Assembly: GCA_963580245.1 (NCBI GenBank)
Contig: CAUZJO010000004.1
Span: 6,380 to 70,379, forward strand
Direction: 5' to 3'
Length of the DNA: 64,000 bases
Origin: Candidatus Sumerlaeia bacterium
Lineage (GTDB): Bacteria > Sumerlaeota > Sumerlaeia > MVZB01
The position numbers were made by a program, and so were the translations under genes. This document shows, one piece after another, positions 4,935 to 23,260 of the stretch. Numbering within the stretch: position 1 is the stretch's first letter; each line of letters opens with the position of its first letter. The notes beneath the pieces are model-generated. The model saw only the letters and a list, made by a program, of their open reading frames with translations. It ran no database searches and had not been told where the DNA came from.

Positions 4935-5558
4935 TCAAGGATGCTTCGATAATCGTTCGAGGACCTTGGAGAGAAACGGGTGCCCGAAATTCAGTTGGAT
5001 CAGCTCGGCGATCCCCGGGTCCAGCGAGCGGTCGCGACGGGGCCGACGGCGGCGGTTGCAGGGGAAGTCGAAGGCGTCGTCTTGGATCGAGAGCACCCGC
5101 GGGCGGCCGTCGCCGAGCGCCAGCGGCCACAGGGCGCAACTGCGCGGTTTGGTGCGATAGGGGTCCAGCCCCAGCTCGAGCGCGGCCGTGTGCAGCGAAC
5201 AACGCGTCTCGCCCGATGCGTTGCGGTAGGCAAACACGCAGCGGCCATGTTCATCCGTATCGAGAACGATCTGCCGCGTTTCATCTTCCTCGAAGGGGTT
5301 GACCCAATCCTTGCCTTCGCGCAACCAGGACGCGTGTCGCGAGGCGTCTGGCATGCAACCGGTGATCCGTTCCATTTCCCGCCGACCCACCGTCACTTCG
5401 TAACTTGAACAACAGCAGCCCCGTTTCTTGCAACGTGCCGGATCGTAACGATGCGTGATCCGCACAAGGGCGCCCAAGTCGACGAGCAGGTTTTGGATGC
5501 GGGGGAGGGAGGTCGGGTTTCGGGTTTCGGGTCTCGGGTCTCGGGTGATAAAGCTCAA
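4935..5558 (-). CDS. Cysteine-cluster protein (YkgJ/DUF3109-like putative Zn/Fe-binding), start uncertain
   Basis: 207 aa ORF with a CKKRGCCC cluster plus further conserved Cys (CMPDASRH, CVFAY, CSLH). The N-terminus contains a (GGGTYTC)x5 nucleotide repeat encoding PETRNP-like repeats, so the true start may be downstream. Confidence 0.45.
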   Translation of the reverse strand: MSFITRDPRPETRNPTSLPRIQNLLVDLGALVRITHRYDPARCKKRGCCCSSYEVTVGRREMERITGCMPDASRHASWLREGKDWVNPFEEDETRQIVLDTDEHGRCVFAYRNASGETRCSLHTAALELGLDPYRTKPRSCALWPLALGDGRPRVLSIQDDAFDFPCNRRRRPRRDRSLDPGIAELIQLNFGHPFLSKVLERLSKHP

Positions 5559-5642
5559 AAAGTCTCTCCTCCCATCTACAGTCTGACCACATCATTCTCA
5601 CGAGACCCCCAAAACCCGAAAGGGAAACTCGATACCCGACTC

Positions 5643-6275: not shown

Positions 6276-6390
6276 CTCGCCCGCTTCTCGAGTGCTGATG
6301 ACGTCGGTCGGGCTGCGTGAGCTGGGTCCGAAGCTCTCGATGAAGCCCAGGTTGGACAGGCCCAGGATTGCGTTGTCGAGTTCGGCCGGG

Positions 6391-7984
6391 TCAATTGAAT
6401 TGGGATCGGGCGTGCAGAATCATGTCGTGCAGCTTCTCGTGCATCGTGAGCAGCTCGAAGATGCCCACCCGGCCCCGGTAGCCGCGCTCCAGACATTCCT
6501 CGCAGCCGTCCGGCTCGAAGACCCGCTCAGGCAAGTCGGTCACGTCGAACTGCCTGGCCAGGATCGGGTCGGGCGCCGCCGGCGCGCGGCACGAGGCGCA
6601 CAAACGCCGCACCAGGCGCTGCGCAAGCACGCCTTGGATCGACGAGGCGATCAAAAAGGGCTCGACGCCCATATCCAGCAGCCGTGTCACCGCCCCCGGC
6701 GCATCGTTGGGGTGGAGCGTCGAGAAGACCAAGTGGCCGGTCAGCGCGGCGCGGATGGCGATATCGGCCGTCTCGCGGTCCCGAACCTCGCCGACCATGA
6801 TGATGTCGGGGGCCTGGCGGACGATCGCGCGCAGGCCGTGGGCGAAATCGAGCCCGCGCCGCGGCCGCACCGGGATCTGGGTGATCCCGGCGATCTGATA
6901 CTCGACGGGAACCTCGATCGTGATGATTTTCTTCTCGGGCGTGTAAATCTAGATCAGGCTGCCGTAGAGGGTGGTCGTCTTCCCGCTGCCGGTGGGGCCG
7001 CAGATCAGCAAGTCCCGTACGACCGGTGCAACAGCGATGAATAGCGCTCGCGGATCGATTCCTCCATGCCCAGGTGGGTCAGATTGAGCAGTGACTCGTC
7101 CTTGTTGAGCAGGCGCAGCACCACGCTCTCGCCATGGATGGTCGGCACGGTCGCCACGCGCACGTCGACGCGCTCACCGAGCAGGTTGACGCAGAACTGG
7201 CCGTCCTGCGGGACGTAGCGCTCGGCGATGTCCATCCCGGCCATGATCTTGACGCGTGAGATGATCGCGGACTGGAGGTGCTTGGGGGGGCGGCATCTCG
7301 TGCAGGATGCCGTCGATGCGGTATTTGATCTTGAGCTGGGCCTCGAACGGCTCGATGTGAATGTCGCTGGCACGTTGCTCGATGGCGTTGGAGACGATCA
7401 TGTTGACCAGGTTGATCAACGTCGGCTCGCGCGCCATCTCTTGGAGGTCGTGCAGGTAGATTTCCTGGTCGCCGCCGGCCTCGCCCTCGATCTTCTCCAT
7501 GCCCTCGATCATGCTCTCGACCGTGACTCCGTAGAGTTCTTGCAGGTAATGGGCGAAGTCGCTTTCGCGCGCGACGGCGAGTCGCACGGGCCGGCCCGCC
7601 AGGAATTCGAGCTCGGCGCGCACCTCGGCGGCCAGCGGGCCGGTCGCGACGCAGCGCAGATAGCCATTCTCGCCGGCCTGAGGCAGGACGCGGCTGGCCT
7701 GGGCCAGCGAGGCCGGGATCAGGTCCTTCAGCGTGGGGGCGGGGGGGCTCGGTGAGGTCCCAGAGGGGGACGTCGGCCTGGACCGCCAGTGCCTGGGCCA
7801 GTTGGTCCTCATTGATGAAATTCAGCGAGCGCATCACGGCGCCCACAAGGGGCCGGGGTTGGGCGTGGGCCTGGACGTCAAGACAGTGATCCAGCCGCTC
7901 TTGGCTGATCAGACCATTTCCCGCGAGCCAGGCGCCCAGTAACTTCTTAGCCACGATGTTCCCTTTTGGAGCCTCGATGATCAA
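6391..7984 (-). pseudogene. gspE: Type II secretion / type IV pilus assembly ATPase (GspE/PilB family), disrupted
   Basis: GspE motifs are spread over three reading frames: an N-terminal domain, RASDIHIEPFEAQLKIKYRIDGIL, VKIMAGMDIAERYVPQDGQF, the Walker A box [43 protein letters not shown] and [11 protein letters not shown]. Both frame changes coincide with G7 homopolymers (about 7284-7290 and 7741-7747). An in-frame TAG (6950-6952) follows the Walker A box. Confidence 0.8.
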
Positions 7985-8685: not shown

Positions 8686-10911
8686 ATGGCCCGGGCGAAG
8701 AAATCCACCGGTAACACGACCCCCTCCTCCCCGTCGGACGCCATGCCGCCAGGCGCCCAGGTCTCGCCGGGGGCGGATTTTCCCCTCAGGCTGGAGCTAT
8801 TGTTGAGGGACCCGCCCGGCCCGGCCGGCGTGGACCCATTCGTGGTGCTGAACGATGGGGGGGAGCACGCGCGCGTTTACCTGGGCCGGATCCTGGCCGG
8901 CCAGCGGACCGTGCTGCGCCACGTGGCTGTCAAACTGGCTCCGCGCCGAGGTCAGGCGTCCGGGATCGAAGGCCAAACCCTGAGCAACGCCCAGCGGCTG
9001 AGGCGCTGGGAACGCGAGTGGAAGCATTATCGCGCGATGGCCGAGGTGCCGGCCGGGGTGACGCCGGTCTATTTCATCCAGCCGGGCCAGGCACTGGCCG
9101 GCTCCGAGCCGCGTCCGCTGATCTGGCCGCCGCTCATCTTCTGCGCTCTCACCCGGTCGCTGCTCCAACCACGTTCGCGCCAGGGGGGACGGCTGAGCGT
9201 TTGCCGCGACGATTCCGTCCTGACCCAAAACGGCCTGCCGCCCCACGGAGGATCGTATACGTTCCTCTGGGACGCCGAGGCGGTTGCGGCGGGCGAGGCG
9301 CCCACGTTTTACCAAATCCCGGCCCCCGGAGCCGAGCAGACCGTCGGCCCGGCCGAGCCATTCGACGCCTGCCTGCGCGCGACCGCCGAGCTGCTGGCCA
9401 ATCCGGGCGAGCTGGTCGCTCGCGGCTCGGACGGGGGGCTGGCCCACATCGTCGAGATCGCCCGCGACTTCCCGGCCATCCTGGACGAGGAGGTGCGTAA
9501 GAAGCTGGTCGCGGAGGACCCGGTCAAGGTATTCAGCCCTTGGCACCTGGACGAGACGCCCGTGCTGGTTTTGGAGCTTAACCGCTTCCACTACGATGAA
9601 TTCTGCGACCTGCTTGGGGGAATCGAGGGCAAGACCTTCGCCACGCGTTACGGCGGTCCAAAAGCGGCCGTCGGCCAGCGCTTGCGTTTGGGCGACAGTC
9701 TGAACGGCGAGGGGTCTTCGCCCCGGCTCCTGTTCTCCGCCGACAGCACGGGGTTGGACGCGGTCGAGCGGTTCCGCCTCAAGTGGTCGCTGTTCTCCCA
9801 ACTCTGCGGCGCGACGCTGGTGTATCAGCGCCGTTGCGGCGCCCCACATCTACGCCTCTCGCCCCGCCACGTCATGGTCCAGGTCGAGCCGAGCGGCGAG
9901 GGGCTGCCCTCGTTATGGAACTTCCAGACCCGATTGATCAGCCTGGGGTCGCCGACGCTCGAAGTCGAGGGGATGGACCTGCCCGAGATCTTCGTCCCGC
10001 CGCTGGGCACCGACCCGCTCTATCAGGCCGAATTGGTGCGCAACAGTTCGTTCGGCATTGCCCAGCGCGGCGATTTCCTGCTCACGGGCGTCGAGAAAAG
10101 CAAAGCCGAGGGCCGCTCCGAGGTCGTCGCGCAAATCCATCACGAAGGCATCGGGCTGCGCTGGCTCAGCCCCAAAGACCACATGCTGGTAACGCTGGGC
10201 AAGCATCTGGTCGCCGAAGCCGAGATCGAATTCATGGCCCACTGCGATGAGAGCAAGGATTACTCGGGCCGGATCATCTATCTGAAGAGCCTCCCCCTGG
10301 AGCTGGACAAAGACAAGGTGGCGGCGCTGGAAAAGTTGAAGGGGATTCGAGTGCCCAACGCCCAGTTCCGCCTGCTGCCCACGATGCACGTCCCATGCGA
10401 TCTGTTTAGCCTGGGGATGCTGCTTTACCGCGCGATGATCGTCAACGACGGCCAGGGGATCGGCGAGGTCGCCCTGGCGCTCGACGGGCTGCGTCAGGAC
10501 CTCAATTCACTGGCGGTGGTTGAATGCGTGGAAGGCCAGGAAGCCTCCTTCTGGGAAGCCTTGCTCAGTGGCCACCGCAATCTGGACGCGGCCACGATCT
10601 TTGACCGCCCTCAGATATTCTTCCACGAACATCAGCGCGCCCCGGACCGGCCCAACGCCATCCCCAAGTGCCTGTGGCACGAGGTCATGGCGCTGGGTCT
10701 GAAGCTGGTCACGCTCAACGAGGATTTTAGTTTCTGCGCCAATCACGGTGACTACGATCCGGAGTATCCCTCGGCGCGACTGGAGCCGCTGACCCGGCGC
10801 GTGGCGGAGATGGGCCGCAAGATCGACACCGCCTTGTTCTCATTCACCGCCCGCAACGCCGAGATCCGCCAGGCCCTCGAGCATGTCGCGCCGGAGATGA
10901 CGATCTCGTGA
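8686..10911 (+). CDS. Large uncharacterised protein with degenerate protein-kinase-like catalytic motifs (candidate pseudokinase), translationally coupled to fha
   Basis: Start taken at MARAKK (8686); the ORF is open from 8587 (GTG). Residues ~400-500 align to the kinase catalytic core but with catalytic residues substituted: HLRLSPRHVMV for HRDLKPENILV, NFQ for DFG, and SFGIAQRGDFLLTG for DxWSxGxxxYELLTG. A second similar block at ~520-615 reads GIGLRWLSPKDHMLV ... DLFSLGMLLYRAM. The stop overlaps the fha ATG (TGATG). Confidence 0.55.
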   Translation: MARAKKSTGNTTPSSPSDAMPPGAQVSPGADFPLRLELLLRDPPGPAGVDPFVVLNDGGEHARVYLGRILAGQRTVLRHVAVKLAPRRGQASGIEGQTLSNAQRLRRWEREWKHYRAMAEVPAGVTPVYFIQPGQALAGSEPRPLIWPPLIFCALTRSLLQPRSRQGGRLSVCRDDSVLTQNGLPPHGGSYTFLWDAEAVAAGEAPTFYQIPAPGAEQTVGPAEPFDACLRATAELLANPGELVARGSDGGLAHIVEIARDFPAILDEEVRKKLVAEDPVKVFSPWHLDETPVLVLELNRFHYDEFCDLLGGIEGKTFATRYGGPKAAVGQRLRLGDSLNGEGSSPRLLFSADSTGLDAVERFRLKWSLFSQLCGATLVYQRRCGAPHLRLSPRHVMVQVEPSGEGLPSLWNFQTRLISLGSPTLEVEGMDLPEIFVPPLGTDPLYQAELVRNSSFGIAQRGDFLLTGVEKSKAEGRSEVVAQIHHEGIGLRWLSPKDHMLVTLGKHLVAEAEIEFMAHCDESKDYSGRIIYLKSLPLELDKDKVAALEKLKGIRVPNAQFRLLPTMHVPCDLFSLGMLLYRAMIVNDGQGIGEVALALDGLRQDLNSLAVVECVEGQEASFWEALLSGHRNLDAATIFDRPQIFFHEHQRAPDRPNAIPKCLWHEVMALGLKLVTLNEDFSFCANHGDYDPEYPSARLEPLTRRVAEMGRKIDTALFSFTARNAEIRQALEHVAPEMTIS

Positions 10912-12773
10912 TGGCCGCGAAAAAAGCTACTCCCCTGATCTGTCTGGAGGTCATCGCCGGGCCGCTCGACGGTCTGCGCTACGAGGGCAAGCAGGGCATC
11001 GTCCAGATCGGGCGCTCCGATGGGACCGGCTCCGATAAAAAGCGCAACGACCTTGTCCTCCAGCGCGACTCCTATGCCTCGAGCTTCCATGGGAGGGTCT
11101 CCCACGCCGACGGCCAGTGGACGCTGAAAGACCTCAACAGCACCAACGGCACGTGGGCGGCCGGTCGCAAGCTGGCCAAGGGGGAGCAAACCACGTTGGT
11201 CGCAGGCGAGGTCTTCGTGGTGGGGAACACGGCGATCCGCCTGGGGACCAAGTCCTCGGGTCTGCCGCCGGTCGACCCGACGGCCTCGGCGGGATTATCG
11301 CCGGCCACCCAGACCATGCTCAATCGGGCCAGGAACGTTGCCCGCGAGCAGCTAAGCCCGTGGATCGGTGCCTCGCACGTCTTTCGGGTCATCGCCGGCT
11401 CCGACGCCCCGCCGCTGCCCGAATTCTTCCAGTCCGTCCATCTGGACTCGGCGGCGACGGCCGACATTATCACTGAATTCGATTACTGGCAAGGCGAGCT
11501 GGAATGGATCGGCAGCAACGTGCTGCGCGGCAGGCGCACACCCGAACACATGCTCAAGAACGTCCTGTCGACGCCCCGACTGCAATTGATCCTGACCCTG
11601 GCCGACCGCGTTCGCGAGAGGGCTTCGGCGCCCCACGTCGAGCCGATCCACCTGCTGGCCGGTATGTTTCTGGAACCCGGCAATATCGTGGTCCTGGCGC
11701 TGTCGGCGGCGGGTTACTCGGCCGACCAGCTCGCCGCCGCGGCCAAAAAGATCATCCAGGGCGAGGAGGAGCCGGATGAAGAGGAGGATCGGGCGCCCGA
11801 GCGCGAGGCGACCGTGCAGGTGCAGTTGCCGATGCCCGCCGCGGTCAAGCAGCGCGAGGCGGTCGATCCGGAGACGTGGCTCCTTGCGCGCCAAATGATG
11901 GACCGGCTGCAGTCGGTTCAAAACGAGTATCACATGGCCGAGCCCGAGGCGCGCTTCGAAGCGATCTGCAAGGCCGCGCGAGAGGGCCTGCAGAAGGCCC
12001 CGCCCGCCAAGCGCCTGGCGATCGTCGACGAACTCCATTATCTCTTCCCCGTGCTCGAAGAAGCCCTGGCGCCTCCTCCCTCGATCTTCGCGGAGGCGCC
12101 CAAGGAGGCTCCGGTCGGGCCGGCGGAAACGACCGACAGCCACCCGGAGCCCGATAACATGCCCGACATGGCCGCGGCGAGTGACGAGCTGGAAACGGGC
12201 GTGGACACCGATTATCTGCTCAATCAGATCTTCGGCAGCGAGAAGATCGCCCAGTCGATCAGCGAGATGGACGAGAGGAACAGCTTTCTGCGGCTGATGC
12301 AGCACCTTTATACGTTCGCGTTGGAGATGGAGCAGCTCGCCAAGGGGCTGGTCCAGTCGTTGCAGGGCGGCGCCGGGGGCGAATCGCGCTACTTCCTGCC
12401 CTTCACGGCCCACGATCTGCGCATGATGGTGCAGAAGATACTGGAGGATAAAGACGAGAGGGAGACGGTGGGAAATATCCGCCTCTACCTCTATGATCTG
12501 AGCAACTGGATCGTGGCGCTGGTGGCGGCCCACCAGAAGGCCACCAGCCAGTGGTACGGGGAGCTGTGGGAGCGCATCAGCCCGTTGGCGATCCAGGACG
12601 AGGCCAAAATCTCCTCACTCAACAAAGCCCTGGGCCAGAGCAAGGCGGAGCTGTGGAAGACCTATGAGCAGGTGGCCGTGGACCTCAAACCCGAGATCGT
12701 CGAGGACGAGTTCAACGAACGGATCGGCAAGCTGGTCACCGAGGAGTTCCGCCGCATGAGCTCTCGCGGCTGA
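10911..12773 (+). CDS. fha: FHA domain protein (T6SS Fha/TagH-like) with Clp_N-like repeats
   Basis: N-terminal FHA domain signature: GRSDG...NDLVLQRDSYASSFHGRVSHADGQWTLKDLNSTNGTWAAGRKL. Two Clp-N-like repeats follow (IGASHVFRVIAG; HVEPIHLLAGMFLEPGNIVVLALSAAGYS). The gene sits immediately upstream of tssJ-tssK-tssL-tssM, as fha1 does in P. aeruginosa H1-T6SS. Confidence 0.8.
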   Translation: MAAKKATPLICLEVIAGPLDGLRYEGKQGIVQIGRSDGTGSDKKRNDLVLQRDSYASSFHGRVSHADGQWTLKDLNSTNGTWAAGRKLAKGEQTTLVAGEVFVVGNTAIRLGTKSSGLPPVDPTASAGLSPATQTMLNRARNVAREQLSPWIGASHVFRVIAGSDAPPLPEFFQSVHLDSAATADIITEFDYWQGELEWIGSNVLRGRRTPEHMLKNVLSTPRLQLILTLADRVRERASAPHVEPIHLLAGMFLEPGNIVVLALSAAGYSADQLAAAAKKIIQGEEEPDEEEDRAPEREATVQVQLPMPAAVKQREAVDPETWLLARQMMDRLQSVQNEYHMAEPEARFEAICKAAREGLQKAPPAKRLAIVDELHYLFPVLEEALAPPPSIFAEAPKEAPVGPAETTDSHPEPDNMPDMAAASDELETGVDTDYLLNQIFGSEKIAQSISEMDERNSFLRLMQHLYTFALEMEQLAKGLVQSLQGGAGGESRYFLPFTAHDLRMMVQKILEDKDERETVGNIRLYLYDLSNWIVALVAAHQKATSQWYGELWERISPLAIQDEAKISSLNKALGQSKAELWKTYEQVAVDLKPEIVEDEFNERIGKLVTEEFRRMSSRG

Positions 12774-12965
12774 GGGCGGGCGACATTTCCATGGTTGGCG
12801 TTTTTCGCAACCCGTATATTTTAACGGGGAGAGGGAAATGCGGGCTAAAAAGGGACACTGGCGTTGTTGATCCTGATTACGAATAATGGCGGGCGTTGAA
12901 CAGGCGCGAGTTCCGCCCCCCCCAGGCGCGTGGACTCGGGGGCCAAGACCCACCGGGAGGATGGC

Positions 12966-13499
12966 ATGATGAAGCGGCACGTTTGTCTTTTGTTGGCACT
13001 GGCCTTGACCGCGGCCGGCTGCAAGAGCGTTCCGATCAAGACGCGTGAAATCCTCTTTTATCGGTCCGATGACCTCAATGACGGCCGTCCCTGCGCCGTC
13101 GATATCATCTATCCGAGAGACTACGAGCAGTTTCAGGAGATCACGCGCGAGATCGGCCCCGAGAAATGGTTCAAGAGCGACCTCTATGATCGCGTGTATA
13201 AAGACGATCCCTGGCTGGAGCGCAAGATGACCCGTGCGCGGCTCGATGTGAAGGTGCCCGAGGATGAATACATGGTCATCTTCGCCGAGTTCAGTAATCC
13301 CGACCCCAATCCCCCGCGTGGGCATCGCGCCTACCTGGTCTATGAGGAAGAAATGCAGCCCAAGGCCAAGAAAACCGAATACATCTGGGTCCACGATGGC
13401 AGTCTGGAGCGGCTGCGCAAAAAGCCCAAGCGGATGCGGCGCGACCGGGACCGTGACCGGAGGGGCCGGGATCGGGATAGCGACCGGGACAAGGATTGA
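12966..13499 (+). CDS. tssJ: T6SS outer-membrane lipoprotein TssJ (SciN family) with RD-repeat C-terminal tail
   Basis: Lipobox LLLALALTAAGC. DLNDGRPCAVDIIYPRDYEQF matches the TssJ/SciN core (LNPDxNGRPxPVxVRxYxL). Small size and the position before tssK are consistent. The C-terminal tail is RRDRDRDRRGRDRDSDRDKD. Confidence 0.65.
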   Translation: MMKRHVCLLLALALTAAGCKSVPIKTREILFYRSDDLNDGRPCAVDIIYPRDYEQFQEITREIGPEKWFKSDLYDRVYKDDPWLERKMTRARLDVKVPEDEYMVIFAEFSNPDPNPPRGHRAYLVYEEEMQPKAKKTEYIWVHDGSLERLRKKPKRMRRDRDRDRRGRDRDSDRDKD

Positions 13500-13665
13500 T
13501 CGGCCCAACCCCTGGGCCGTTAACGGAGAATTCTTCGTACTCGTAACTCGTAACTCGTAATCGAACATTCTCGATCATCGAGAGAAGAACGGAACATCGA
13601 TTACGAATTACGAGCACGAGCACGAAGGTGAGCATGAGAGTAGGGGACTTGAGGTAAGGCGGACG

Positions 13666-15033
13666 ATGAGCGAGTTCATGGAGATCAACTGGGGCGAGGG
13701 GATGTTTTTGCGGCCCCACCACTTGCAGCAATTCAGCCGCTATCGGCGGATCGCGTTGCAGCGCGAGATCGCCATGTCGCGGCCCTTCGCTTACGGCGTC
13801 CAGGAGATCAACATCTCGACGGCCGAACTCGAGGGTTTCGTCTTCTCGATCCGCTCGTGCAATATCCGGCTCAAGGACGGCACGCGCATCATGGCGCCGC
13901 ACAACGGCGAGTTCGAGCCGCGTGATTTCAAAAAGGAATTGGACGCGGCCGCCGGCGTGCTCGACGTCTGCGTCGGCGTGCCGCTGCTGATGGAACGCGA
14001 ACCCAACACGCTAACGATGTCCGAGGAGTCCACCCTCTATCACCGCCGCTACAAGGCGATGGTCGTCGAAGTGGTCGACGAGAACACCGGAGCCAACGGC
14101 CAGGCCATCGAGATGCGCAAGTTGAGCCCGCGCATTTTGTTCAAGGGCGAGGACATGGCCGGCTATGAGGTGATGCAAGTCGCCCGCATCGAGCGTTCGG
14201 GGTTCGAGGACAACAAACCGATCCTCTCGCAAAACTTCATCCCATCGATCCTGGTCATGGAAGCCTGGCCGCCGCTGTTCGATTACTGCAAGGACATCTA
14301 CCAGCAACTGATGGCCAAGAACCGCTCGCTGATCAGTCAGATCGCGGGGCGCAAGATCGCGTTCGGTTCGGAGGGGGTCGGCGGCCCCGAGGCGATGCTC
14401 AAGCTCAACATCACCAACCGCTACGCCGCCTTCCTGCGCCAATGGACGAGCATGCCCAACCTGCATCCGTTCGACGTGTTCGTCGAGCTGTGCCGCCTGG
14501 CGGGGGACCTGGCAATCTTTGATGAATCGCGCTCGGTGCCCGATATCCCGCTCTATAACCACGACGACCTGGGCGGCTCGTATCTCGACCTGCTGCGCGT
14601 CCTTGAGCGACTGATCAACAACATCCTGCCGACCACGTTCATCAAGCGGCGCTTCGAGCCCGTCGAGAACCGTCGCGAGGTGGCCCTGGAGGACGAATGG
14701 CTGCTGCCCGAAGTCGAGTTCTACCTGTGCATCGAGAGCGATCAGGACGACGACAAGATCGACCGGGAAGTCTCGTTCCTGAAGATGGGTTCGGTCGAGG
14801 ACCTGCCCACGCTGATCAACCGCCGCCTACCGGGGTTGATGCTGCGCCGGATTCGGCGCACCCCGATCGGCTTGCCCGACCGGCCCAATTACCACTTCTA
14901 CCGTATCTCGCGCGAGGGCCGGTTCTGGGACAGCTTGCTCGAGACCAGAGTGCTCTCGGCCTATGGCCTGGCCGACGAAACGCTCGAACTGGACCTGTAT
15001 ATCTTGCTTAGACCGGAGAAGGAGGGGGAATGA
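13666..15033 (+). CDS. tssK: T6SS baseplate subunit TssK
   Basis: N-terminus INWGEGMFLRPHHLQQFSRY matches the TssK hallmark (WxEGxFLxPQHFQQ). The length (455 aa) and the position between tssJ and tssL also fit. Confidence 0.85.
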   Translation: MSEFMEINWGEGMFLRPHHLQQFSRYRRIALQREIAMSRPFAYGVQEINISTAELEGFVFSIRSCNIRLKDGTRIMAPHNGEFEPRDFKKELDAAAGVLDVCVGVPLLMEREPNTLTMSEESTLYHRRYKAMVVEVVDENTGANGQAIEMRKLSPRILFKGEDMAGYEVMQVARIERSGFEDNKPILSQNFIPSILVMEAWPPLFDYCKDIYQQLMAKNRSLISQIAGRKIAFGSEGVGGPEAMLKLNITNRYAAFLRQWTSMPNLHPFDVFVELCRLAGDLAIFDESRSVPDIPLYNHDDLGGSYLDLLRVLERLINNILPTTFIKRRFEPVENRREVALEDEWLLPEVEFYLCIESDQDDDKIDREVSFLKMGSVEDLPTLINRRLPGLMLRRIRRTPIGLPDRPNYHFYRISREGRFWDSLLETRVLSAYGLADETLELDLYILLRPEKEGE

Positions 15034-15181
15034 CGGGGCAATCGGCCACCGCCGCCCATCCCCGGAACCCCGTCGTGAAACATATCGTGCTCGTAACTCG
15101 TAATCGAAATCCCGGTCATGCTCCAATGCTTGAGACCGTCCCATTACGAATTACGACCACCGACCGGCCAGGGGTGATTCG

Positions 15182-16084
15182 ATGACGCTGAATGAATTGG
15201 CCTCGGACCTGTTCCTGTTTCTGGTCACGTTCCGCCGCCAGGTCCGCAAAGGCCTGATCCCCGACATCTATCAGGTCCGCTCGCAACTGCTCGAGATCTT
15301 CGAGACCCAGCAGCAGCGCGCAAGCGAGGATCCCAAACTCGAAAAGCAATACCAAAAGGGGCGCTATCCGTTGGTGGTGACCGCCGATGAGATACTGATC
15401 AACGCCAACTGGGCCTATTCCAGTCAGTGGGAGGACGAGATCCTCGAGTACGAGTTCTTCAAGACGCGCATCGCCGGCGAGAAGTTCTTCGAGACCATCG
15501 AAGAACTCGGGGACGAAGACGACTCGGTCGCTGAAATCCTCTATCACTGCCTGGCGCTGGGTTTCGTGGGGCGTTACAAGGGGGACGCCGAGGAACTTCG
15601 CCGGCTCAAGCGCCGCCTGTATCGGATGCTCCCCGGACGCGTGGGCGAGGACGATAAACGCATCTCGCCCGACGCCTATTTCGTCGCCGAGGGGGTCAAG
15701 GACATCTACAAACCACTGATGAACCTGACCCGCATCGTGCTCATCTGCGGGACGCTCCTCATCGTCTTGTGGATCGGGTTCTTCTATTACCGCACCTTCG
15801 TCATCCCGAGTAAGATCAAGGAATTCGCCAAGGAGATGCGCCAGGCCGCCGCCCCCGGCGGATACGTCCTGGATGACGATGATGAAAACGAAGAGGAGGA
15901 GGATGAAGACGAGGACGAGGCGGATGATTTCTTCGCGCTCAAGGACGAACAGGATGAGGATGAGGACGAAGAATCCTCGGAAAACGATGACGACGCCGAT
16001 GACGTGAGTTCCGATGAAGACGATGACGGCGAAGACGAGGACGAAGACGAAGACAAGGACGAGTTGGGTGATTTGTTTGGTTAG
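15182..16084 (+). CDS. tssL: T6SS membrane protein TssL (DotU/IcmH family) with hyper-acidic periplasmic tail
   Basis: DotU core LYHCLALGFVGRYKG, a single TM (IVLICGTLLIVLWIGFFYY), then a ~95 aa D/E-rich tail. TAG stop. Confidence 0.75.
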   Translation: MTLNELASDLFLFLVTFRRQVRKGLIPDIYQVRSQLLEIFETQQQRASEDPKLEKQYQKGRYPLVVTADEILINANWAYSSQWEDEILEYEFFKTRIAGEKFFETIEELGDEDDSVAEILYHCLALGFVGRYKGDAEELRRLKRRLYRMLPGRVGEDDKRISPDAYFVAEGVKDIYKPLMNLTRIVLICGTLLIVLWIGFFYYRTFVIPSKIKEFAKEMRQAAAPGGYVLDDDDENEEEEDEDEDEADDFFALKDEQDEDEDEESSENDDDADDVSSDEDDDGEDEDEDEDKDELGDLFG

Positions 16085-16185
16085 AACCTCATCGCCGAAC
16101 GCATCGCCCGTGCTTGGGGCGTGTTGAACAGTTGGGTATGAATGTCGTGAGGCTGAAAATTGGATCGATCGGGGTGTAAACGGAA

Positions 16186-19100
16186 ATGCTCGCGCAATTA
16201 GCGAACCAGCCAATCCTCTATCGCTTTATGGCCGGGGGCTCGATGGCCATCGCCGTGATCGCGGTGATCGGCCGCTTTTTCGGCTGGACGATCGCGGGGC
16301 TGCTGATCGGCGGCTTGTTGATTGCCGCCGCCGTCATGTGGTTTTTCAACAAAGGCATCAAGCTTAAGCGCAAGAAGAAGGCCAGTGCTTTTGACAAGGG
16401 CCTGCAGGCCGACGCCGGCAAGGCCGGCCACGGCAAAGCCGAACAGCGCAAGGCCCAAGGCGAGATCTATCAGCGCTGGAACCAGGCCGTCACCGAACTC
16501 AAGCGCGGCGGCCTGAACCTCTATGATCTGCCCTGGTATTTGCTGATCGGCGAGCCCCAATCGGGCAAAAGCACCACGCTGCGCCACTCCGGCCTGGAGT
16601 TCCCCGTGGGGACCGAAGCCCTTTCGGGTGCCGGCGGCACACGCAATTGCGATTGGTGGTTCACCAACGAGGCCGTCATCCTCGACACCGCCGGTCGCTT
16701 CACCTTCCAGGAAAAAAACGCCCCCGACGCCGATGAATGGAAAAGCTTCCTCAAGTTGCTCAAGAAGAACCGCCCCGCCTGCCCGATCAACGGGGTGGTC
16801 GTGACCATCCCGCTGACCTCGCTGCTGGGCGATTCGCCCGAAGAACGGGAAGACAAGGCACGTAACCTGCGCGAGAAACTGACCGAAATCCAGCGCGAAT
16901 TGGAAGTCCAGTTCCCGGTCTTCATCCTGCTGACCAAGTCCGACCAAATCCTTGGTTTCACCGAGTTCTTTTCGCGGCTGGGTGCGACCGAACAGCGCCA
17001 GTTGCTCGGCTGGTCGATGCACGGCCCGTTCATCCAGGCCTACGACCCCGACAAGTTCAAGGAGGTCTTCGACAGTCTCTATCAACGCATCCACAAGTGG
17101 CGCAACAAGATCATCGGCGAGGACCTGAGCCTGACCGAGGTCGATAAACTCTACGTCTTCCCCGAGGAATTCAAGTCGGTCCGCGATCCCTTGCACGACT
17201 ACCTCAAATCGGTCTTCGTCAAGACGCACTACCTGCCGCCGCTGTTCTTCCGCGGCTTCTATTTCACCAGCGGCATGCAGACGGGCCAGCCGATTGCCAA
17301 GGCCTGCGCGCAACTGCTGCGCAGGGCCGGTGAGGGCGCCGACGAGATCGTCGAGCACCTGCAAAAGATCTTCGAACGTTCGCGCGCCTTCTTCATCCGC
17401 GACTTCTACATCGAAAAACTCTTCCCCGAGCGCAACCTAGTCATCCATTCCGAGAAGAAGATGAAGATGGGGCGCAAGGTGGGGATGCTGGCGGTGTGGG
17501 GCGGCGCGGCCTTGTTGCTGCTGACCATGCTGTTCATCGTCTGGCGCGGCATCATCCTAAGCCGGGGCGTGGGCGGGATCGAGCAGGCGGCCAAAGTCGT
17601 CAAACGCGAGTTCATCTCGGACGTGAGCGCGGCCCGCCGCGACGATCCCGAACCCAAGGAGACCGAGGACGCGGCCGAGGCCGTCAAAACGGCCTCTGAA
17701 TTCCATGACAAGTCCGAAAAGACGGTTGAAAAGATCGGTAGCCTGGCCCCCTATCTGCGCGACATGTATTTCCTGTACTTCTTGCAGAACAGCCTGCGAG
17801 ACCAGGGCCAGGCGCTCTACACCCAACTGGCGGCGACCGAGCCCGGGGCGAGCGCCGATGATGAGGCGATCAATCGACTCTATCGAGACTACGTCCGCCT
17901 GTGGAGCCTCAACCCGATCTGGGAGGCGCACGCGCTCGCTGATGAGGGAAGATTCAAGAAGGCCGGGTCTTTCAAGTACTCATCGATGATGCAGTCGGGC
18001 GTCACGGACAAAACGCAAGAGACGTTCCAGGACAATCTGGAGCGGCTGCGCGATATTCTCGGCGATAAGAAGGAATCACCCAACTTCGAGAAGTATCCGG
18101 TCGCCATCCCAATCGTTCCGGGTCACGTGAACCCCAAACGCAACGACGTGATCCGAAAAGAGATCGAGCACATCAAGGATAGCTTCAACCCCGTCGAGCA
18201 GGACACCGTGAATCGGGTCGTCGGGCGGGCTTCGGGGATACGTGAACTCTACGCTTCGGCCGTCGTCGGCCTGTTCAGCGTCCCATGCGGCTACCCCGAC
18301 CCCGACACCGATCCCTTCACCGACGCGCGCAATTCGATCGGGCGCATCCGCGACGCGATCCGCTCGCTCGATGAAGTCCTGGCAGCCAACGAGGACCTGG
18401 GCGGTGCCATGGTGGTTGATGAGGCCGGGATCAAGGCAAAGTTTTTGGAACTGACCTGGGTCAAGGGCACTCTCAAGAAAAGCGAGGCCAGGGATGATCT
18501 GAGGGACTACATTCTCGAATCCATTCAAGAGGTCAACGAGCGGTTCAGAGACCATGCCCAAAAGGCCAAGCAACCGCTCGAAGCAGTCGGCGACGTCATC
18601 GGCGGCGATCCGCTTGGCCTCAGCGAAGGTCTCGGGATGGCTGGCGACGGCCTGGACATGATCGAGGCGCTCGCCGAGGCCCAGAACACGATGGTGGTCA
18701 ACGTACGCGAGCGTAAACCGAAAAACCCCGACGAAGTCGATCAGACCCTCAAGGAATGGCGCGGGAATGACGCGCGGATCGCTGCGGAGAGCTGGGCCAC
18801 GCAGGCCGCCGGCAGGGTGGACCTGCCCGCCACCTGGCAGCTTCCCACCCTGGGCAACTCGGTGGGGCAGATGGTCCGGCAAAGCGATGAAGCAGTCCAC
18901 GTCGAAGCGTGGCTGGCCTACATGCGCAACGTCCAACCGGGCGTCCTGCTTTCGGGCAGCCAGATTTCCCGGGCCTCGCTCGGTGGCGATCCCCCGCCGG
19001 GGGCCACGGCCGAACGGGTCAAGAGCGCCAACGACGAATTGGCCGACCTGGCCGCGCAACTGAGCCAGTTTCGCGAGGGGATCGAGTGCGACAACAACCG

Positions 19101-20388
19101 CCAACGCGTGCGCGGGCGCATGGAGAGCATCGCCGGGGTCATCAACGCCAACAAGAACAATTTCAGCGGCTATTGGATGAAGGCTTTCGACCGCTGGCAT
19201 CCGGCCGGATGGATCGAATCGATTTCGAGTTGGAAGGCGTTCAAGCAGGACGACCTGATGCAGGGCACGGCCCTTTCGCAGCGCGTCAAGCAGGACCTCC
19301 AACGCCTGGTGGCCCACGTCAAGAACTACAAGGACACGGTCGGATCGGTCGGCAAGCTCGAGTCCATTTACTCGGACTTGCGGCAGTTCGTCACCCCCGG
19401 ATCGGCGTTGGAGAATAACGCCAACCTTTTCTCCGGCACCATCGAAGAGATGGAACTGAATGAGCTCGGGGCGCGGTTGCAACTCGAGGAGCCGGGCCAG
19501 GGCGGCATGACGCGGGCCGAGGCGATCGAGAGCATCGCCGAGCGCAGTTCCTCGCTCAATAGCAAGTTCAGGCCCTACCCCGACAAGGTGCGCGCGCTGC
19601 TGGGCGACCCCACCGAGCAATTCGAGCATGAACTGGGACAATTCCTGGCCAAATGGTCCAAGGCCCTGGCCGGTAAGTTCCCGTTCGCGGTGCCCGCCGA
19701 CCAGGTCGTGGTCGAAGCGGCGTCGATGGATATCCCCCAAGTCGACGCCAAATTGCTGCGTGACTTCTATTACGGCCCCGACAGCCTGGAGGCGTTCCTC
19801 GGCAAGTACGGCCCGATCTATGAGAAATGGTCGGACAAACCGGCGAACGAGGCGGCCAAGGATTTCTTCGACCAATGCCTCAGGCTCAAGGACTATTTCC
19901 TTGACCCCGGCGTCAAAGACTACCGCAAACTGCAACTGGAAGGGACTTACATCGGGTTCGTGGGTAAATCGACCGACGACCTGCGTCAGATCAGCGAAGT
20001 CATCCGACTACTCTTGCCGACCTCTTCCACCGAACGCAAAGTGGCCCGCTGGCGATCTCAGGTCGAAGGCGACAAGACCGCGTTTGAATGGACCCCCGGC
20101 GACTATGGCGAGGAGGGATTCCTGGTCTTCGAGTCCAAGCTCGAACGCGGCGATCGACCCAACAAGGCGGAGTTGCGCGTGGGCGGCGACTTCTCGGTCC
20201 TGGCCTACATCGTGACCCAGGTCAACGGCGTGCCCGAGGTCGAGCGGCGCAAGTGGCCGGTCAATTTCTCGGTCCAGCCCGAAAACAGCAAACAGGATCA
20301 GCGCTACATGATCAGTTTCGTCTTCGTGTTCGAAAACAGCCTGCCGCGCCTGCCCGATTGGGGAGATGTTGCAAAGTGGACGAAATGA
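16186..20388 (+). CDS. tssM: T6SS membrane complex protein TssM (IcmF family)
   Basis: Two N-terminal TM helices, then the Walker A region LYDLPWYLLIGEPQSGKSTTL (IcmF NTPase hallmark), a third TM near aa 430 and a large periplasmic domain. 1400 aa. Confidence 0.85.
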   Translation: MLAQLANQPILYRFMAGGSMAIAVIAVIGRFFGWTIAGLLIGGLLIAAAVMWFFNKGIKLKRKKKASAFDKGLQADAGKAGHGKAEQRKAQGEIYQRWNQAVTELKRGGLNLYDLPWYLLIGEPQSGKSTTLRHSGLEFPVGTEALSGAGGTRNCDWWFTNEAVILDTAGRFTFQEKNAPDADEWKSFLKLLKKNRPACPINGVVVTIPLTSLLGDSPEEREDKARNLREKLTEIQRELEVQFPVFILLTKSDQILGFTEFFSRLGATEQRQLLGWSMHGPFIQAYDPDKFKEVFDSLYQRIHKWRNKIIGEDLSLTEVDKLYVFPEEFKSVRDPLHDYLKSVFVKTHYLPPLFFRGFYFTSGMQTGQPIAKACAQLLRRAGEGADEIVEHLQKIFERSRAFFIRDFYIEKLFPERNLVIHSEKKMKMGRKVGMLAVWGGAALLLLTMLFIVWRGIILSRGVGGIEQAAKVVKREFISDVSAARRDDPEPKETEDAAEAVKTASEFHDKSEKTVEKIGSLAPYLRDMYFLYFLQNSLRDQGQALYTQLAATEPGASADDEAINRLYRDYVRLWSLNPIWEAHALADEGRFKKAGSFKYSSMMQSGVTDKTQETFQDNLERLRDILGDKKESPNFEKYPVAIPIVPGHVNPKRNDVIRKEIEHIKDSFNPVEQDTVNRVVGRASGIRELYASAVVGLFSVPCGYPDPDTDPFTDARNSIGRIRDAIRSLDEVLAANEDLGGAMVVDEAGIKAKFLELTWVKGTLKKSEARDDLRDYILESIQEVNERFRDHAQKAKQPLEAVGDVIGGDPLGLSEGLGMAGDGLDMIEALAEAQNTMVVNVRERKPKNPDEVDQTLKEWRGNDARIAAESWATQAAGRVDLPATWQLPTLGNSVGQMVRQSDEAVHVEAWLAYMRNVQPGVLLSGSQISRASLGGDPPPGATAERVKSANDELADLAAQLSQFREGIECDNNRQRVRGRMESIAGVINANKNNFSGYWMKAFDRWHPAGWIESISSWKAFKQDDLMQGTALSQRVKQDLQRLVAHVKNYKDTVGSVGKLESIYSDLRQFVTPGSALENNANLFSGTIEEMELNELGARLQLEEPGQGGMTRAEAIESIAERSSSLNSKFRPYPDKVRALLGDPTEQFEHELGQFLAKWSKALAGKFPFAVPADQVVVEAASMDIPQVDAKLLRDFYYGPDSLEAFLGKYGPIYEKWSDKPANEAAKDFFDQCLRLKDYFLDPGVKDYRKLQLEGTYIGFVGKSTDDLRQISEVIRLLLPTSSTERKVARWRSQVEGDKTAFEWTPGDYGEEGFLVFESKLERGDRPNKAELRVGGDFSVLAYIVTQVNGVPEVERRKWPVNFSVQPENSKQDQRYMISFVFVFENSLPRLPDWGDVAKWTK

Positions 20389-20503: not shown

Positions 20504-21475
20504 ATGGGAATGTTTCAAAGCCTTAAGGACCGGTTCTTTTCGCGGCACGACGGGGCGATCGAGGACTTTGTGCTGGCCGCCTATGGCAAATTGCCGATCT
20601 ATAAGGACTATATTATCTGGGAATGTTACCACGGCGGGGCGGCGGAGTTTAAACAGTGGATGGATGAGACGTTCGGGTTGCAATGGGAAGAGTTCGACGG
20701 CAAGAACGCGCGCTTGGCCGGCCCCTGCCGCGCGATGCTGCTGATGCCCGGGGGGCGCAACGTCGTGGCCGTCTCGATGTGGCCATCGGCCGATGAGGGC
20801 AACATGCGCAAGTTCCCGTTCGCGCTGTTCGCGTGCTTCAATCGCGGCGAGATCGTCGGACTCGGTCTGCGCGGCGCGCTCGAGGCCCTCGATCCGGTCT
20901 GGCGGGCGCTCGAGGCCGAGTATGACCAGGTGCGCCACTGCGCCAATATCGAGGACCTCTATAGTTATTTCCAACGCTCGGCTCCCCAGGCCGAGCCGCC
21001 CGCCGAGGACCCCGCCGAAAAGGAACTGCCCCTGGCCGATTGGTTCGAGGCCATCTATCCCGGCCAGGCGGGCACCCTGCGCAAGTGGCTTGACAGCGAA
21101 CTTCAGATGGCCCTGGACGCGTACCGCGGGTTCCCCGAACAGGGCGAGTCGCTCGCCGCGCGCCTCCCGATCGCGCGCGACCTGAGCTTCTCCCGACAGG
21201 CCGAGTTCTGGGAACAGCTCTTCAAGCAAAACCTCAAGCGCTGCCCCGCCATCCCCAGCGTGGTGATTGACCTAAGCGGCCAAGACGGCCCCGCCGCGAT
21301 GAACCTGGCGTGGCGCGACCTCAAGCGCGAAGACGGTCGCCTGTTCGCCATGAAGTACGAAGACTACGAGCACCTTGAAAACCTCACTCCCGACGCCCCT
21401 CCGCGCGGCTCGGGCGAGGATATCGACCCCGACCTGACGATCGAAAAGTGGATCGCCGGCTTCGCGGAGCCGTAA
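20504..21475 (+). CDS. tagF: T6SS-associated protein TagF-like (DUF2094)
   Basis: N-terminal AAYGKLPIYKDYI resembles the TagF GFFGKLPxxGDF motif. It directly follows tssM, as in tssM-tagF arrangements. Confidence 0.55.
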   Translation: MGMFQSLKDRFFSRHDGAIEDFVLAAYGKLPIYKDYIIWECYHGGAAEFKQWMDETFGLQWEEFDGKNARLAGPCRAMLLMPGGRNVVAVSMWPSADEGNMRKFPFALFACFNRGEIVGLGLRGALEALDPVWRALEAEYDQVRHCANIEDLYSYFQRSAPQAEPPAEDPAEKELPLADWFEAIYPGQAGTLRKWLDSELQMALDAYRGFPEQGESLAARLPIARDLSFSRQAEFWEQLFKQNLKRCPAIPSVVIDLSGQDGPAAMNLAWRDLKREDGRLFAMKYEDYEHLENLTPDAPPRGSGEDIDPDLTIEKWIAGFAEP

Positions 21476-21494
21476 TCTTTCGCGGTCAGGTCGA

Positions 21495-22130
21495 TCACCA
21501 GTCATCTTCGCGAAGGTCGATCATGACGAGACCGGTCGCGAAATCGAGGATTTCATAAGGGTCCAGCCCGATGTCGAACCCTACGATCATCAGCTGCGCG
21601 CCCGCCCCAAACTCCGTCGGTGAATAACCCGGACCCATGCCCGCGCCCGTTGCGACGTCGGCGACGCTGACCTGGACGCCGTTATAACTCTCCAGACCGG
21701 CGGGCAGTCTGGGAATCCGGCGCATGCGCGGACCCGGCAGCCCGGCATAGACGCCGGCATAAGTCCCGATGAAACCGCTGGCGGCCTTCGTCGCGCGGGC
21801 ACCGACGGCGATGCCCGGTCCGAGCCTGGCGCGCAGACGGAATACGTCGACGACATCCAAGATTCGGTTCGGCGCATAGAAAACAAAGCGGTGCAGGACG
21901 CCCGGCCCATTATCCTCCGACCCCGAGTTCGGCGCCGCTTGGGTGGCCGCGCCTTCAGGGTTGCCGGGGGCCTGCCGGCTGACGGTCGCGCATCCGCCGG
22001 CCGCCAAGGCCAACGGCAAGAGCAGGACCAGTCCATTAAGGCAGACACACCGGGCCTTTGACCCGCGATAACCATTGAGTTCTTCACGTTCATGGATGTA
22101 CATATTCGACCTCCGACCATTTTGTTGCAA
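21495..22130 (-). CDS. Lipoprotein of unknown function
   Basis: Signal/lipobox LVLLLPLALAAGGC. Gly/Ala-rich secreted protein, convergent with tagF. Confidence 0.5.
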   Translation of the reverse strand: MQQNGRRSNMYIHEREELNGYRGSKARCVCLNGLVLLLPLALAAGGCATVSRQAPGNPEGAATQAAPNSGSEDNGPGVLHRFVFYAPNRILDVVDVFRLRARLGPGIAVGARATKAASGFIGTYAGVYAGLPGPRMRRIPRLPAGLESYNGVQVSVADVATGAGMGPGYSPTEFGAGAQLMIVGFDIGLDPYEILDFATGLVMIDLREDDW

Positions 22131-22337
22131 CGAAACACAATCATGTCGCCATTTTATTTTCTATCTTTTTTTGCTGTCCGAAAGGTTCGCGAAGGCCAAG
22201 TCAGCGCGGATCACTTCAATGTCCAGCGCCGCAGAGCCGAGATCGACATTTTGAGGTTGTCGAAGGATTAAAGATCGTGGTTTGCTAAACGTGGGTTTCT
22301 CACGTCATGAAGCGAAAATTAAGGTTTCCAGCAATAG

Positions 22338-22646
22338 GTGAAGGATGGACGGATGAATTCGAAACCGCCGCGGCCTAGCGGCTTGCATGAACGACCGAGC
22401 TTCTTCCTTGACACCACGCCCGAGGCATTGCACGCTTATTATGGGGTCATTTGGCGGATGACGCCCGAGGAGAGACTGAGCGTCGGCCTGCGGCTCGGCC
22501 GCCGGATGCGCGCGCTGAGCGAAGCGGCCGTCCGCATGCGCCTTCCCGACTACAATGACAAGCAGGTCCGCCTGGCCGTCATTCGGCTGCGGCTGGGCAG
22601 GGAGCTGTTCGAGAGAGCCTATCCGGGGATCGAGATCAAACCCTAA
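22338..22646 (+). CDS. Small hypothetical protein, translationally coupled to downstream nucleotidyltransferase-like gene
   Basis: 102 aa. The stop and the next ATG overlap (TAATG at 22646). Confidence 0.4.
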   Translation: MKDGRMNSKPPRPSGLHERPSFFLDTTPEALHAYYGVIWRMTPEERLSVGLRLGRRMRALSEAAVRMRLPDYNDKQVRLAVIRLRLGRELFERAYPGIEIKP

Positions 22647-23257: not shown

Positions 23258-23260
23258 GAG

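Follow-up and report, generated by a model that had tools for sequence, protein, structure and literature searches.

We analysed a 64-kb window (the whole stretch of DNA under study, one contig of its source genome, with a G+C content of about 62%; all coordinates are window positions) in which membrane-complex and baseplate genes of a type VI secretion system (T6SS) stand in a row on the + strand. The spacers on either side of tssK in this row each hold an imperfect stem-loop, here called hairpins A and B, and in both the arm unit is a tandem TCGTAAY heptamer whose complement lies on the opposite arm. The genes and repeat features concerned are given below in their order along the window.

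10908-12773, + strand: FHA protein gene (Pfam FHA)
12875-12884, + strand: solo right-arm-type 10-mer GATTACGAAT in the FHA-tssJ spacer (exact direct repeat)
12966-13499, + strand: tssJ-like lipoprotein open reading frame (ORF), at the tssJ position, without a Pfam match
13533-13626, + strand: hairpin A, imperfect stem-loop in the tssJ-tssK spacer of 166 nt (minimum-free-energy (MFE) and centroid structure; inverted repeats)
13535-13565, + strand: left arm of hairpin A, TCGTAC-TCGTAAC-TCGTAAC-TCGTAAT-CGAA (period 7, 3.9 copies at 13535-13560 by Tandem Repeats Finder, TRF)
13571-13585, no strand assigned: apex palindrome of hairpin A, TCTCGATCATCGAGA = TCTCGAT-C-ATCGAGA, absent from hairpin B
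13596-13626, + strand: right arm of hairpin A, TCGA-TTACGAA-TTACGAG-CACGAG-CACGAAG (inverted repeats; TRF period 6 at 13610-13625)
13666-15033, + strand: tssK (Pfam T6SS_VasE, E = 4.6e-78), between hairpins A and B
15085-15160, + strand: hairpin B, imperfect stem-loop in the tssK-tssL spacer of 148 nt (inverted and direct repeats; fold)
15085-15108 and 15143-15160, + strand: left and right arms of hairpin B
15182-16084, + strand: tssL (DotU; Pfam DotU, E = 8.1e-38)
16186-20388, + strand: TssM gene (Pfam IcmF-related_N)

Hairpin A lies 34 nt downstream of the tssJ stop and 40 nt upstream of the tssK ATG. Its left arm includes an exact period-7 run (13539-13560) and, counted from the sequence, carries TAA in all three + frames, while in its right arm the heptamer units shade into hexamer units. 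Folded as RNA, the spacer with hairpin A reaches -59.7 kcal/mol, which none of 200 shuffles equalled (z = -3.8). An imperfect hairpin with a central palindrome had been proposed for this spacer by the initial annotation, and we indeed find it, with a stem spanning 13533-13626. Hairpin B, 52 nt downstream of the tssK stop and 22 nt upstream of the tssL ATG, has two heptamer units, and its spacer folds with z = -2.1 (7/200 shuffles equal). The tssJ-like gene in turn ends, immediately before hairpin A, in degenerate copies of a GACCGG-like hexamer (13443-13490, 8.5 copies), which encode an Arg/Asp-rich protein tail; the tail of the homologue in L121, a relative described below, is likewise rich in R, D and E.

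The arms of the two hairpins are nearly the same and their loops unrelated. The left arm CTCGTAACTCGTAATCGAA is the same in A and B at 19/19 positions and the right arm ATTACGAATTACGA(G/C)CAC at 17/18, with an A-to-B offset of exactly 1543 nt for both arms. The segment between the arms is 34 nt long in each copy, and only 4/34 of its bases are identical, as counted from the sequence. With 8 copies of CTCGTAA the window exceeds the 2.75 expected, and none of 100 shuffles has as many; six of the eight occurrences fall inside A and B. We found no further tandem or inverted TCGTAA/TTACGA arrangement anywhere in the 64 kb, in line with the earlier remark that the motif was not seen elsewhere in the window.

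The same annotation had described hairpins in three consecutive spacers of the operon. This holds for A and B, on repeats and folds alike. It does not hold for the FHA-tssJ spacer, whose copy is the lone 10-mer at 12875-12884: we found no inverted partner for GATTACGAAT in that spacer, which folds no better than shuffles (z = -0.6). Since by our own calculation from base composition only about 0.03 occurrences of this 10-mer are expected per window, we take it to be a relic or a solo arm, neither a hairpin nor noise. Several searches for known elements around the hairpins came back empty. Rfam 15 gave no meaningful match over 12700-15300 even at E up to 10, and a promoter/terminator consensus scan of 12000-16500 found nothing at either hairpin. 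The arms TCGTAAC and ATTACGA do not fit the RYYYAAC ... GTTRRRY cores of an integron attC site, and this reading was dropped on the core mismatch together with the neighbourhood, which consists of core T6SS genes in an order kept in relatives. CRISPR-like and operator readings were likewise dropped on sequence features and lack of conservation.

For the evolutionary history of the spacers, we compared the same gene row in nine other lineages, reached through TssK and TssJ homologues (relatives and scan loci are labelled L001-L148). The hairpins are absent in eight of the nine: either the spacer bears no trace of the motif or the spacer itself is missing. In the closest relative, L121 (TssK 85% identical), the two spacers measure 180 and 149 nt, are GC-rich, contain no TCGTAA and fold no better than shuffles (z = 0.0 and +1.3); when they were set against the window spacers in search of insertion boundaries, they were not alignable past the gene ends. 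In L133 with L139-142, L123, L148 and L135 (TssK 81, 77, 77 and 76%), tssJ and tssK overlap by 4-8 nt, and tssK and tssL either overlap or leave a gap of 2-6 nt. L125 (TssK 75%) has an unstructured tssJ-tssK spacer of 133 nt (z = +1.0) and overlapping tssK and tssL. Because overlapping or near-abutting junctions are so common among the relatives, tightly packed tssJ/tssK/tssL junctions are the common state and the spacers are derived. Such packing presumably serves translational coupling.

Three lineages have palindromes of other kinds at these junctions. The contig of L134 (TssK 79%) starts within the tssJ-tssK spacer, with the array TCACGA-TTACGA-TTACGA-TCACGA-TCACGA (L134 1-36) ending 30 nt before the tssK ATG; this hexamer array probably represents the right arm of a related hairpin in which the assembly broke off, with the left arm not recovered. 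In L136 (TssK 75%), two adjacent hairpins, ACGTGTCCA/TGGACATGT, follow directly after the tssK stop (2385-2450, z = -3.5); with their common arms AACGTGTCCA / TGGACATGT(T/G) they belong to another palindrome family, placed at the same junction as hairpin B. In L147 (JGI 3300009093; TssJ 56% identical), a 171-aa Y1_Tnp gene of the IS200 type, resembling the tyrosine transposases associated with repetitive extragenic palindromic (REP) sequences (RAYTs), lies directly upstream of the tssJ homologue (1-764). It is bracketed by GCCCGC-GAAG-GCGGGC REP-type hairpins in opposite orientations, the classic REP/RAYT arrangement. Given these other palindromes in L134, L136 and L147, the junctions around tssK are sites that repeatedly gather lineage-specific palindromes, and the TCGTAAY hairpins are one case. 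A conserved T6SS element is contradicted by the lack of any counterpart in the orthologous spacers of eight of the nine lineages. Within the source population, by comparison, the spacers are uniform: that of hairpin A is identical in four assemblies and that of hairpin B in the two assemblies covering it. No variation in unit number was seen among them (four assemblies for A, two for B), and there is consequently no evidence of rapid unit-number switching.

The same kind of hairpin is widespread beyond the T6SS. We scanned 185,579 species genomes (one per species, 596 Gb) with the pattern TCGTAANTCGTAA-N20-50-TTACGANTTACGA, that is, (TCGTAAN)2-loop-(NTTACGA)2 with 24 specified bases, and obtained at least 120 matching loci against about 0.07 expected by chance (our own calculation); the class figures given here are among these at least 120 loci listed (class loci L001-L120). 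Every match listed is a hairpin with tandem-heptamer arms and a short unrelated loop. The matches come from at least eight phyla, among them Acidobacteriota, Cyanobacteria, Bacteroidota, Planctomycetota, Gemmatimonadota, Chloroflexota and Proteobacteria. Pyrinomonadaceae and other Acidobacteriota, with the unit TCGTAAA or TCGTGAA, make up the majority; many others are from Nostoc, Anabaena, Tolypothrix and Stigonema, with the unit TCGTAAT. Bacteroidota have TCGTAAG, and mixed units occur in Planctomycetota, Gemmatimonadales, Chloroflexia, Armatimonadetes and several Proteobacteria. The seventh base of the unit is lineage-typical among the matches listed, and the unit numbers of the arms are unequal and variable. 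Period-7 arrays number 294 in the class loci against at most 12 for any other period, an excess that is partly ascertainment; roughly a hundred of these period-7 arrays have other units.

The class follows a clear positional rule. Genes at the class loci were called with a crude longest-ORF caller, whose calls are real according to Pfam. In 73 neighbouring proteins Pfam recognised 106 families, all of unrelated housekeeping functions (for example acetyl-CoA carboxylase, Mur ligases, MreB, RimM and GidA); Pfam revealed no enriched neighbouring gene family, and no T6SS genes occur at the class loci among the matches listed. The hairpin spacers are co-directional in 73 cases, convergent in 18 and divergent in 3, whereas divergent spacers account for 18% of the other spacers at the same loci by count (p = 2e-5) and for 30% by length (p = 8e-11). 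Among gene 3' ends facing a hairpin, 105/134 lie within 30 nt of the core, and in 58 of these 105 the stop codon is in heptamer phase (14% expected), so that the gene is terminated by a TAA or TGA belonging to the array. It follows from the sequence that three TCGTAAN units place TAA in all three frames and that the complementary arm does likewise on the other strand. Sites for a T6SS regulator, one of the functions first suggested for the heptamers, are thus unsupported, since the repeats are absent from the orthologous spacers and the same arms are common in unrelated intergenic DNA. The suggestion of a small mobile repeat family held in part and, of the readings first offered, lies nearest to the evidence, the family being a cross-phylum class of simple-sequence-repeat hairpins and not an established mobile element.

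Searches of other collections added little to this picture. At gathering scores, Rfam returned no hairpin match for 18 class loci, only unrelated tRNA, cobalamin riboswitch or chance matches. A metagenome scan with the exact arms, TCGTAACTCGTAAT-N20-50-ATTACGAATTACGA, yielded five matches, all in unrelated organisms; this collection evidently lacks the source population, since the JGI contig L137, which carries hairpin A, was not returned. In viral contigs the TCGTAA target gave 3 matches compared with 1 and 0 for two permuted control heptamers, all small numbers. As a separate observation, many Pyrinomonadaceae TCGTAAA hairpins (for example L002, L053, L066 and L104) have an A-tract and GCC on one side and GGC and a T-tract on the other (AAAAGCCGTGAA ... 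TTCACGGCTTTT). These flanked hairpins resemble extended bidirectional intrinsic terminators, and their commonest form is nearly constant in length, at 50-52 nt.

We therefore read hairpins A and B and the orphan arm, with a probability of roughly 55%, as lineage-specific intercistronic palindromes of a widespread inverted heptamer-array class rather than as a T6SS-specific regulatory site. This reading builds on what is shown: the structures themselves, the way they are made up of repeats, their occurrence in this lineage where others have overlapping junctions, and the positional rule of the class. As to origin, replication slippage would have expanded the 7-nt unit, and template switching in the quasi-palindrome, or local copying between neighbouring spacers, would have kept the arms complementary and A like B. 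Comparison shows what changed in the source lineage: junctions that overlap or abut (2-6 nt) in most relatives are here hairpin spacers of 166 and 148 nt. On the operon transcript, the stem-loops (sense-strand folds of -44 and -25 kcal/mol) may uncouple translation of the three cistrons; acting in the manner of REP sequences, as barriers to 3'-5' exonucleases or substrates of double-strand RNases, they may also determine how stable individual mRNA segments around tssK are. The ribosome-binding site of tssL is moreover predicted to be sequestered and that of tssK to be mostly open, which would favour TssK output over TssL. Two short elements are involved in this prediction.

15068-15071, + strand: CCCC upstream of hairpin B, predicted partner of the tssL Shine-Dalgarno (SD) sequence (partition function; MFE and centroid); the helix would close the base of B
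15171-15174, + strand: tssL SD sequence GGGG, predicted to be sequestered (partition function)

In the partition-function prediction, the four G of the tssL SD sequence are paired with probabilities of 0.86-0.96, about half of this with the CCCC at 15068-15071. For the tssK SD sequence GAGG (13651-13654) the prediction is a mostly open state, with a pairing of 0.82 for the first G and of 0.03-0.12 for the other three. TssK has the higher copy number in known T6SS assemblies, in agreement with the predicted bias of TssK over TssL. A mildly functional or nearly neutral status of the hairpins is fully compatible with the data. The initial annotation had also considered RNA processing or attenuation hairpins, which we regard as possible: A and B occupy typical 3'-end or intercistronic positions, but they have no U-tract, lack conservation and form the stronger fold as antisense. 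Its call for folding the spacers was answered favourably for A and B and unfavourably for the FHA-tssJ spacer, at the z-scores given above.

Several results weigh against the interpretation as class palindromes acting in the mRNA. All sense-strand stem mismatches in A and B are C.A, and because these become G.U pairs on the other strand, the antisense strand folds better: -57.5 (A) and -37.5 (B) kcal/mol on the minus strand versus -43.7 and -24.5 on the plus strand, an advantage of 13-14. The minus strand has 7 distinct G.U pairs and the plus strand 1, and some of these pairs occur at positions that A and B do not share. Folding that favours the antisense strand is the opposite of what is expected from selection on an mRNA hairpin. 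By our own reasoning, deamination biased towards the coding or leading strand would likewise produce the opposite pattern. Over 76 class loci, a difference between sense and antisense folding of at least 13 in absolute value is found in only 3, and there is no sense-strand preference among the 76 (G.U 201 vs 196, p = 0.17), so that selection at the RNA level is not demonstrated for the class. The location of A and B 1.5 kb apart is itself unusual, two or more hairpins within 8 kb being found at 13/120 of the class loci listed. Identical arms and spacing around unrelated loops are not what simple slippage would be expected to leave. Finally, stability, processing and occlusion of the ribosome-binding site are all deduced from thermodynamic prediction.

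Of the alternatives, a miniature mobile element of the REP/REPIN type (REPIN denoting a REP doublet) or of the miniature inverted-repeat transposable element (MITE) type, served by a transposase in trans and represented here by two neighbouring insertions and a decayed third copy, is unlikely, although several facts would suit it. Presence and absence differ among close lineages, the class distribution is REP-like (after gene 3' ends, rare in divergent spacers), a genuine REP-flanked Y1 (RAYT-like) transposase occupies the FHA-tssJ spacer of the related lineage L147, and the strand asymmetry of the stems fits recognition as single-stranded DNA on one strand. The unrelated loops of A and B (4/34) indicate, however, that the copied unit is not a whole element. 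Neither hairpin has a target-site duplication or flanking direct repeats, and a tblastn search of the window and of L001-L146, queried with the RAYT-like protein of L147, returned no Y1 transposase. The class arms differ in unit number as from slippage, and nothing points to activity, the spacer of A being identical in four assemblies and that of B in two. Decidedly unlikely, mainly because of lacking conservation, is control of tssJ, tssK and tssL by a sequence-specific protein, either a transcription-factor or nucleoid-type protein on DNA or an RNA binder, through the ATTACGAAT/TCGTAAY units. Such a binder would be expected to give the 19/19 and 17/18 matches of the arms, equally spaced around unrelated loops, and the exact solo 10-mer in a third consecutive operon spacer. 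In A as in B about 52.5 bp, or some five turns of the helix, separate the arm centres; the remaining 60 kb of the window lack the motif, and S1, Csp and CsrA have been proposed as single-strand binders of TAACTGA heptamer repeats (PMC4679880). Against such a binder, the motif is missing from the orthologous operon of eight of the nine lineages, most of which have no spacer at all, and the same arms adjoin unrelated housekeeping genes in many phyla; a 7-bp period would not set successive sites on one face of B-DNA, and Pfam shows no evident regulator gene in the T6SS cluster.

The strand asymmetry is the reason for keeping, at low probability, a reading in which function resides in an antisense (minus-strand) RNA or a single-stranded DNA hairpin, for example the end or processing site of an antisense transcript silencing tssJ-tssK-tssL. 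The stronger minus-strand folds and the 7 versus 1 distinct G.U pairs, including those at positions that A and B do not share, would suit it, and their asymmetry lies in the tail of the class (3/76). We nonetheless judge it very improbable: after the hairpins there is neither a minus-strand gene nor a promoter-like site nor a U-tract, the common ancestry of A and B makes their common mismatches dependent on each other, and slippage spreading one unit variant can turn a single mutation into several mismatches of the same type. Intrinsic terminators or attenuators inside the operon are extremely unlikely. Stable stem-loops do stand shortly after stop codons, and in many Pyrinomonadaceae members of the class an A-tract precedes the stem and a T-tract follows it, but no T/U run follows either hairpin on either strand (the tails are GGTGAGCA and CGACCGGC), and the essential T6SS genes downstream, tssL and tssM, need read-through. 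A bolder proposal goes beyond the palindrome reading and is, in our estimation, quite improbable: instead of having arisen many times through independent slippage, all TCGTAAN hairpins would form a single cross-phylum functional class, in which a conserved cellular factor reads the arms by their 7-nt period at gene 3' ends and prefers one strand, stops in every frame are selected, and the pair around tssK has been recruited for TssK dosage or antisense control.

Taken as class palindromes, hairpins A and B fit a known kind, the inverted arrays of heptameric long simple sequence repeats (SSRs): they have a 7-nt tandem unit, a nearby complementary array and an intergenic location between co-oriented genes, and their presence varies between relatives, with eight of nine lineages lacking the hairpins and L134 having a related hexamer arm. 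REP hairpins in operon mRNAs set segmental stability in Escherichia coli operons. REPs reportedly stabilise upstream mRNA segments or impede ribosomes near stops (Newbury 1987 and Liang, Rudd and Deutscher 2015 are said to have described this). The imperfect intergenic palindromes of the class, set between co-directional or convergent genes, resemble the REP sequences and bacterial interspersed mosaic elements (BIMEs), or REPINs, of Enterobacteria and Pseudomonas; unlike the present stems of 75-95 nt with tandem-repeat arms, however, REPs are unique-sequence palindromes of 20-40 nt with a conserved 5' tetranucleotide and a RAYT link. RNase R acts jointly with PNPase in degrading mRNAs that contain REPs (PMC12320835). 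Membership in the REP/REPIN families was rejected for stems of 75-95 nt made of tandem units with no RAYT in the window or L001-L146, and membership among MITEs for an unrelated internal segment of 34 nt (4/34) and the absence of flanking direct repeats.

Classical units of the short tandemly repeated repetitive (STRR) heptamers are CCCCAGT, TTGGTCA and CAACAGT. Mazel et al. reportedly described these STRR sequences from heterocystous cyanobacteria in 1990. They resemble the present class in being tandem heptamers in intergenic DNA (PMC4692102), and many of our scan matches are in Nostoc, Anabaena, Tolypothrix and Stigonema; they differ in being described as direct arrays, not hairpins, and the window has a Sumerlaeota/BRC1-like source. 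In most bacterial genomes, heptanucleotide repeats outnumber every other class of long SSR according to Mrazek et al. 2007, as cited in PMC4679880, with polymerase slippage proposed as their cause (the same authors, as cited in PMC4679880 and PMC4692102). A close parallel is GGGAATC, of which Rehm et al. 2015 counted 186 and 183 arrays in two Xanthomonas genomes, with 70-75 inverted pairs that are potential stem-loops (PMC4692102). The flanking ORFs are co-oriented in 65-70%, convergent in 16% and divergent in 7-8%, and array length and presence vary between species, with no known function (PMC4692102). Like Xanthomonas GGGAATC and Nostoc GGGGAYT (PMC4692102), the TCGTAAN hairpins are few-copy 7-nt units in opposite-strand pairs, intergenic, mostly flanked by co-oriented ORFs and rare in divergent spacers, with a presence and unit number that differ among related genomes. 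Unlike them, TCGTAAY is AT-rich, contains a stop and allows no G-quadruplex, and its TCGTAA core recurs across many phyla, while the window has two copies in one operon. MacGregor 2015 reported TAACTGA intergenic direct repeats in marine Beggiatoaceae, Cyanobacteria and Bacteroidetes, a patchy cross-phylum spread, and proposed a post-transcriptional role for them; such a stop-containing heptamer can overlap gene ends by a few units only (PMC4679880). TCGTAAN shares with TAACTGA the stop-containing tandem heptamer and a patchy spread across phyla that suggests transfer or convergence (PMC4679880). It differs in arrangement, since TAACTGA lies just upstream of starts in 169 direct sets versus 1 inverted, whereas TCGTAAN is inverted and hugs the upstream stop. 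A literature search for TCGTAAN repeat dimers as strings found none in the papers covered, and PMC4679880 does not mention them; the cross-phylum TCGTAAN subclass is possibly an unreported detail.

The window contains other repeat-armed elements that are different from hairpins A and B. At 41645-41798 lies its strongest local inverted repeat, a 71-nt loop enclosed by 36-nt arms with 92% complementarity; these arms are tandem 9-mers, (AACGCGGAT)x4 and (ATCCGCGTC)x4.9. The architecture is like that of the T6SS hairpins, with a different unit and period. A likeness between the two had been noted in a central GATCATC; the 7-mer is indeed common to both, but it lies within two otherwise different apex palindromes, which makes the resemblance weak. 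At 5510-5640, between two minus-strand genes (secretin-like and DUF3109-like), another repeat-armed hairpin combines a heptamer array TCGGGTT/TCGGGTC x4.9 (5513-5546) with an AACCCGA partner that is partial, GAGACCC...AACCCGAAA at 5595-5621; its 27-nt arms are 74% complementary. The called start of the DUF3109-like gene probably over-extends into the array at 5513-5546. The spacer between the PSD1/PSCyt2 and DUF3109-like genes holds a 42-nt unit in two tandem copies of 90% identity (4829-4912, TRF).

The T6SS genes themselves have an informative setting. Homologues of the tssJ-like gene were returned by a homologue search exclusively in T6SS context, and those of TssK and the tssJ-like lipoprotein carry the source labels candidate division BRC1 or Candidatus Sumerlaeota. 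A TagF_N match in the gene row is weak and under the Pfam cut-off. In the stretch 20504-23300, short ORFs without a Pfam match and then sulfatase genes come after this TagF-like gene; in L123 and L125 its place is followed instead by a gene of the TssA type (ImpA_N / T6SS_VasJ). Genes for DUF1501, PSD1 and PSCyt2 proteins also lie in the neighbourhood. The window ORFs checked include no gene for a sheath protein, Hcp or VgrG, so that the T6SS gene set in the window looks split or partial. Elsewhere, at about 6390-7815 (L126 2726-4147), the ATPase domain of a type II secretion system or type IV pilus (T2SSE, MshEN) extends across three short consecutive minus-strand ORFs, which adjoin a 210-aa secretin fragment; the split of this domain over three ORFs beside a secretin fragment suggests a decayed secretion or pilus locus.

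For the T6SS, the meaning of these results is mostly cautionary. The operon-internal repeats are not a conserved control element, and A and B should for that reason not be annotated as regulator sites. Interest at the operon level is low. The class is of more note: TCGTAA-core hairpins occur in at least eight phyla at gene 3' ends, often donate the stop codon, avoid divergent promoters and have no RNA-family entry. The excess of heptamers in bacteria, known since 2007, has no accepted explanation, and a searchable hairpin subclass with a positional rule makes the question more testable, so that the TCGTAAN class is a modestly interesting lead on an old problem. The passage from coupled junctions to hairpin spacers in one lineage offers, in addition, a natural before/after comparison for polycistronic expression.

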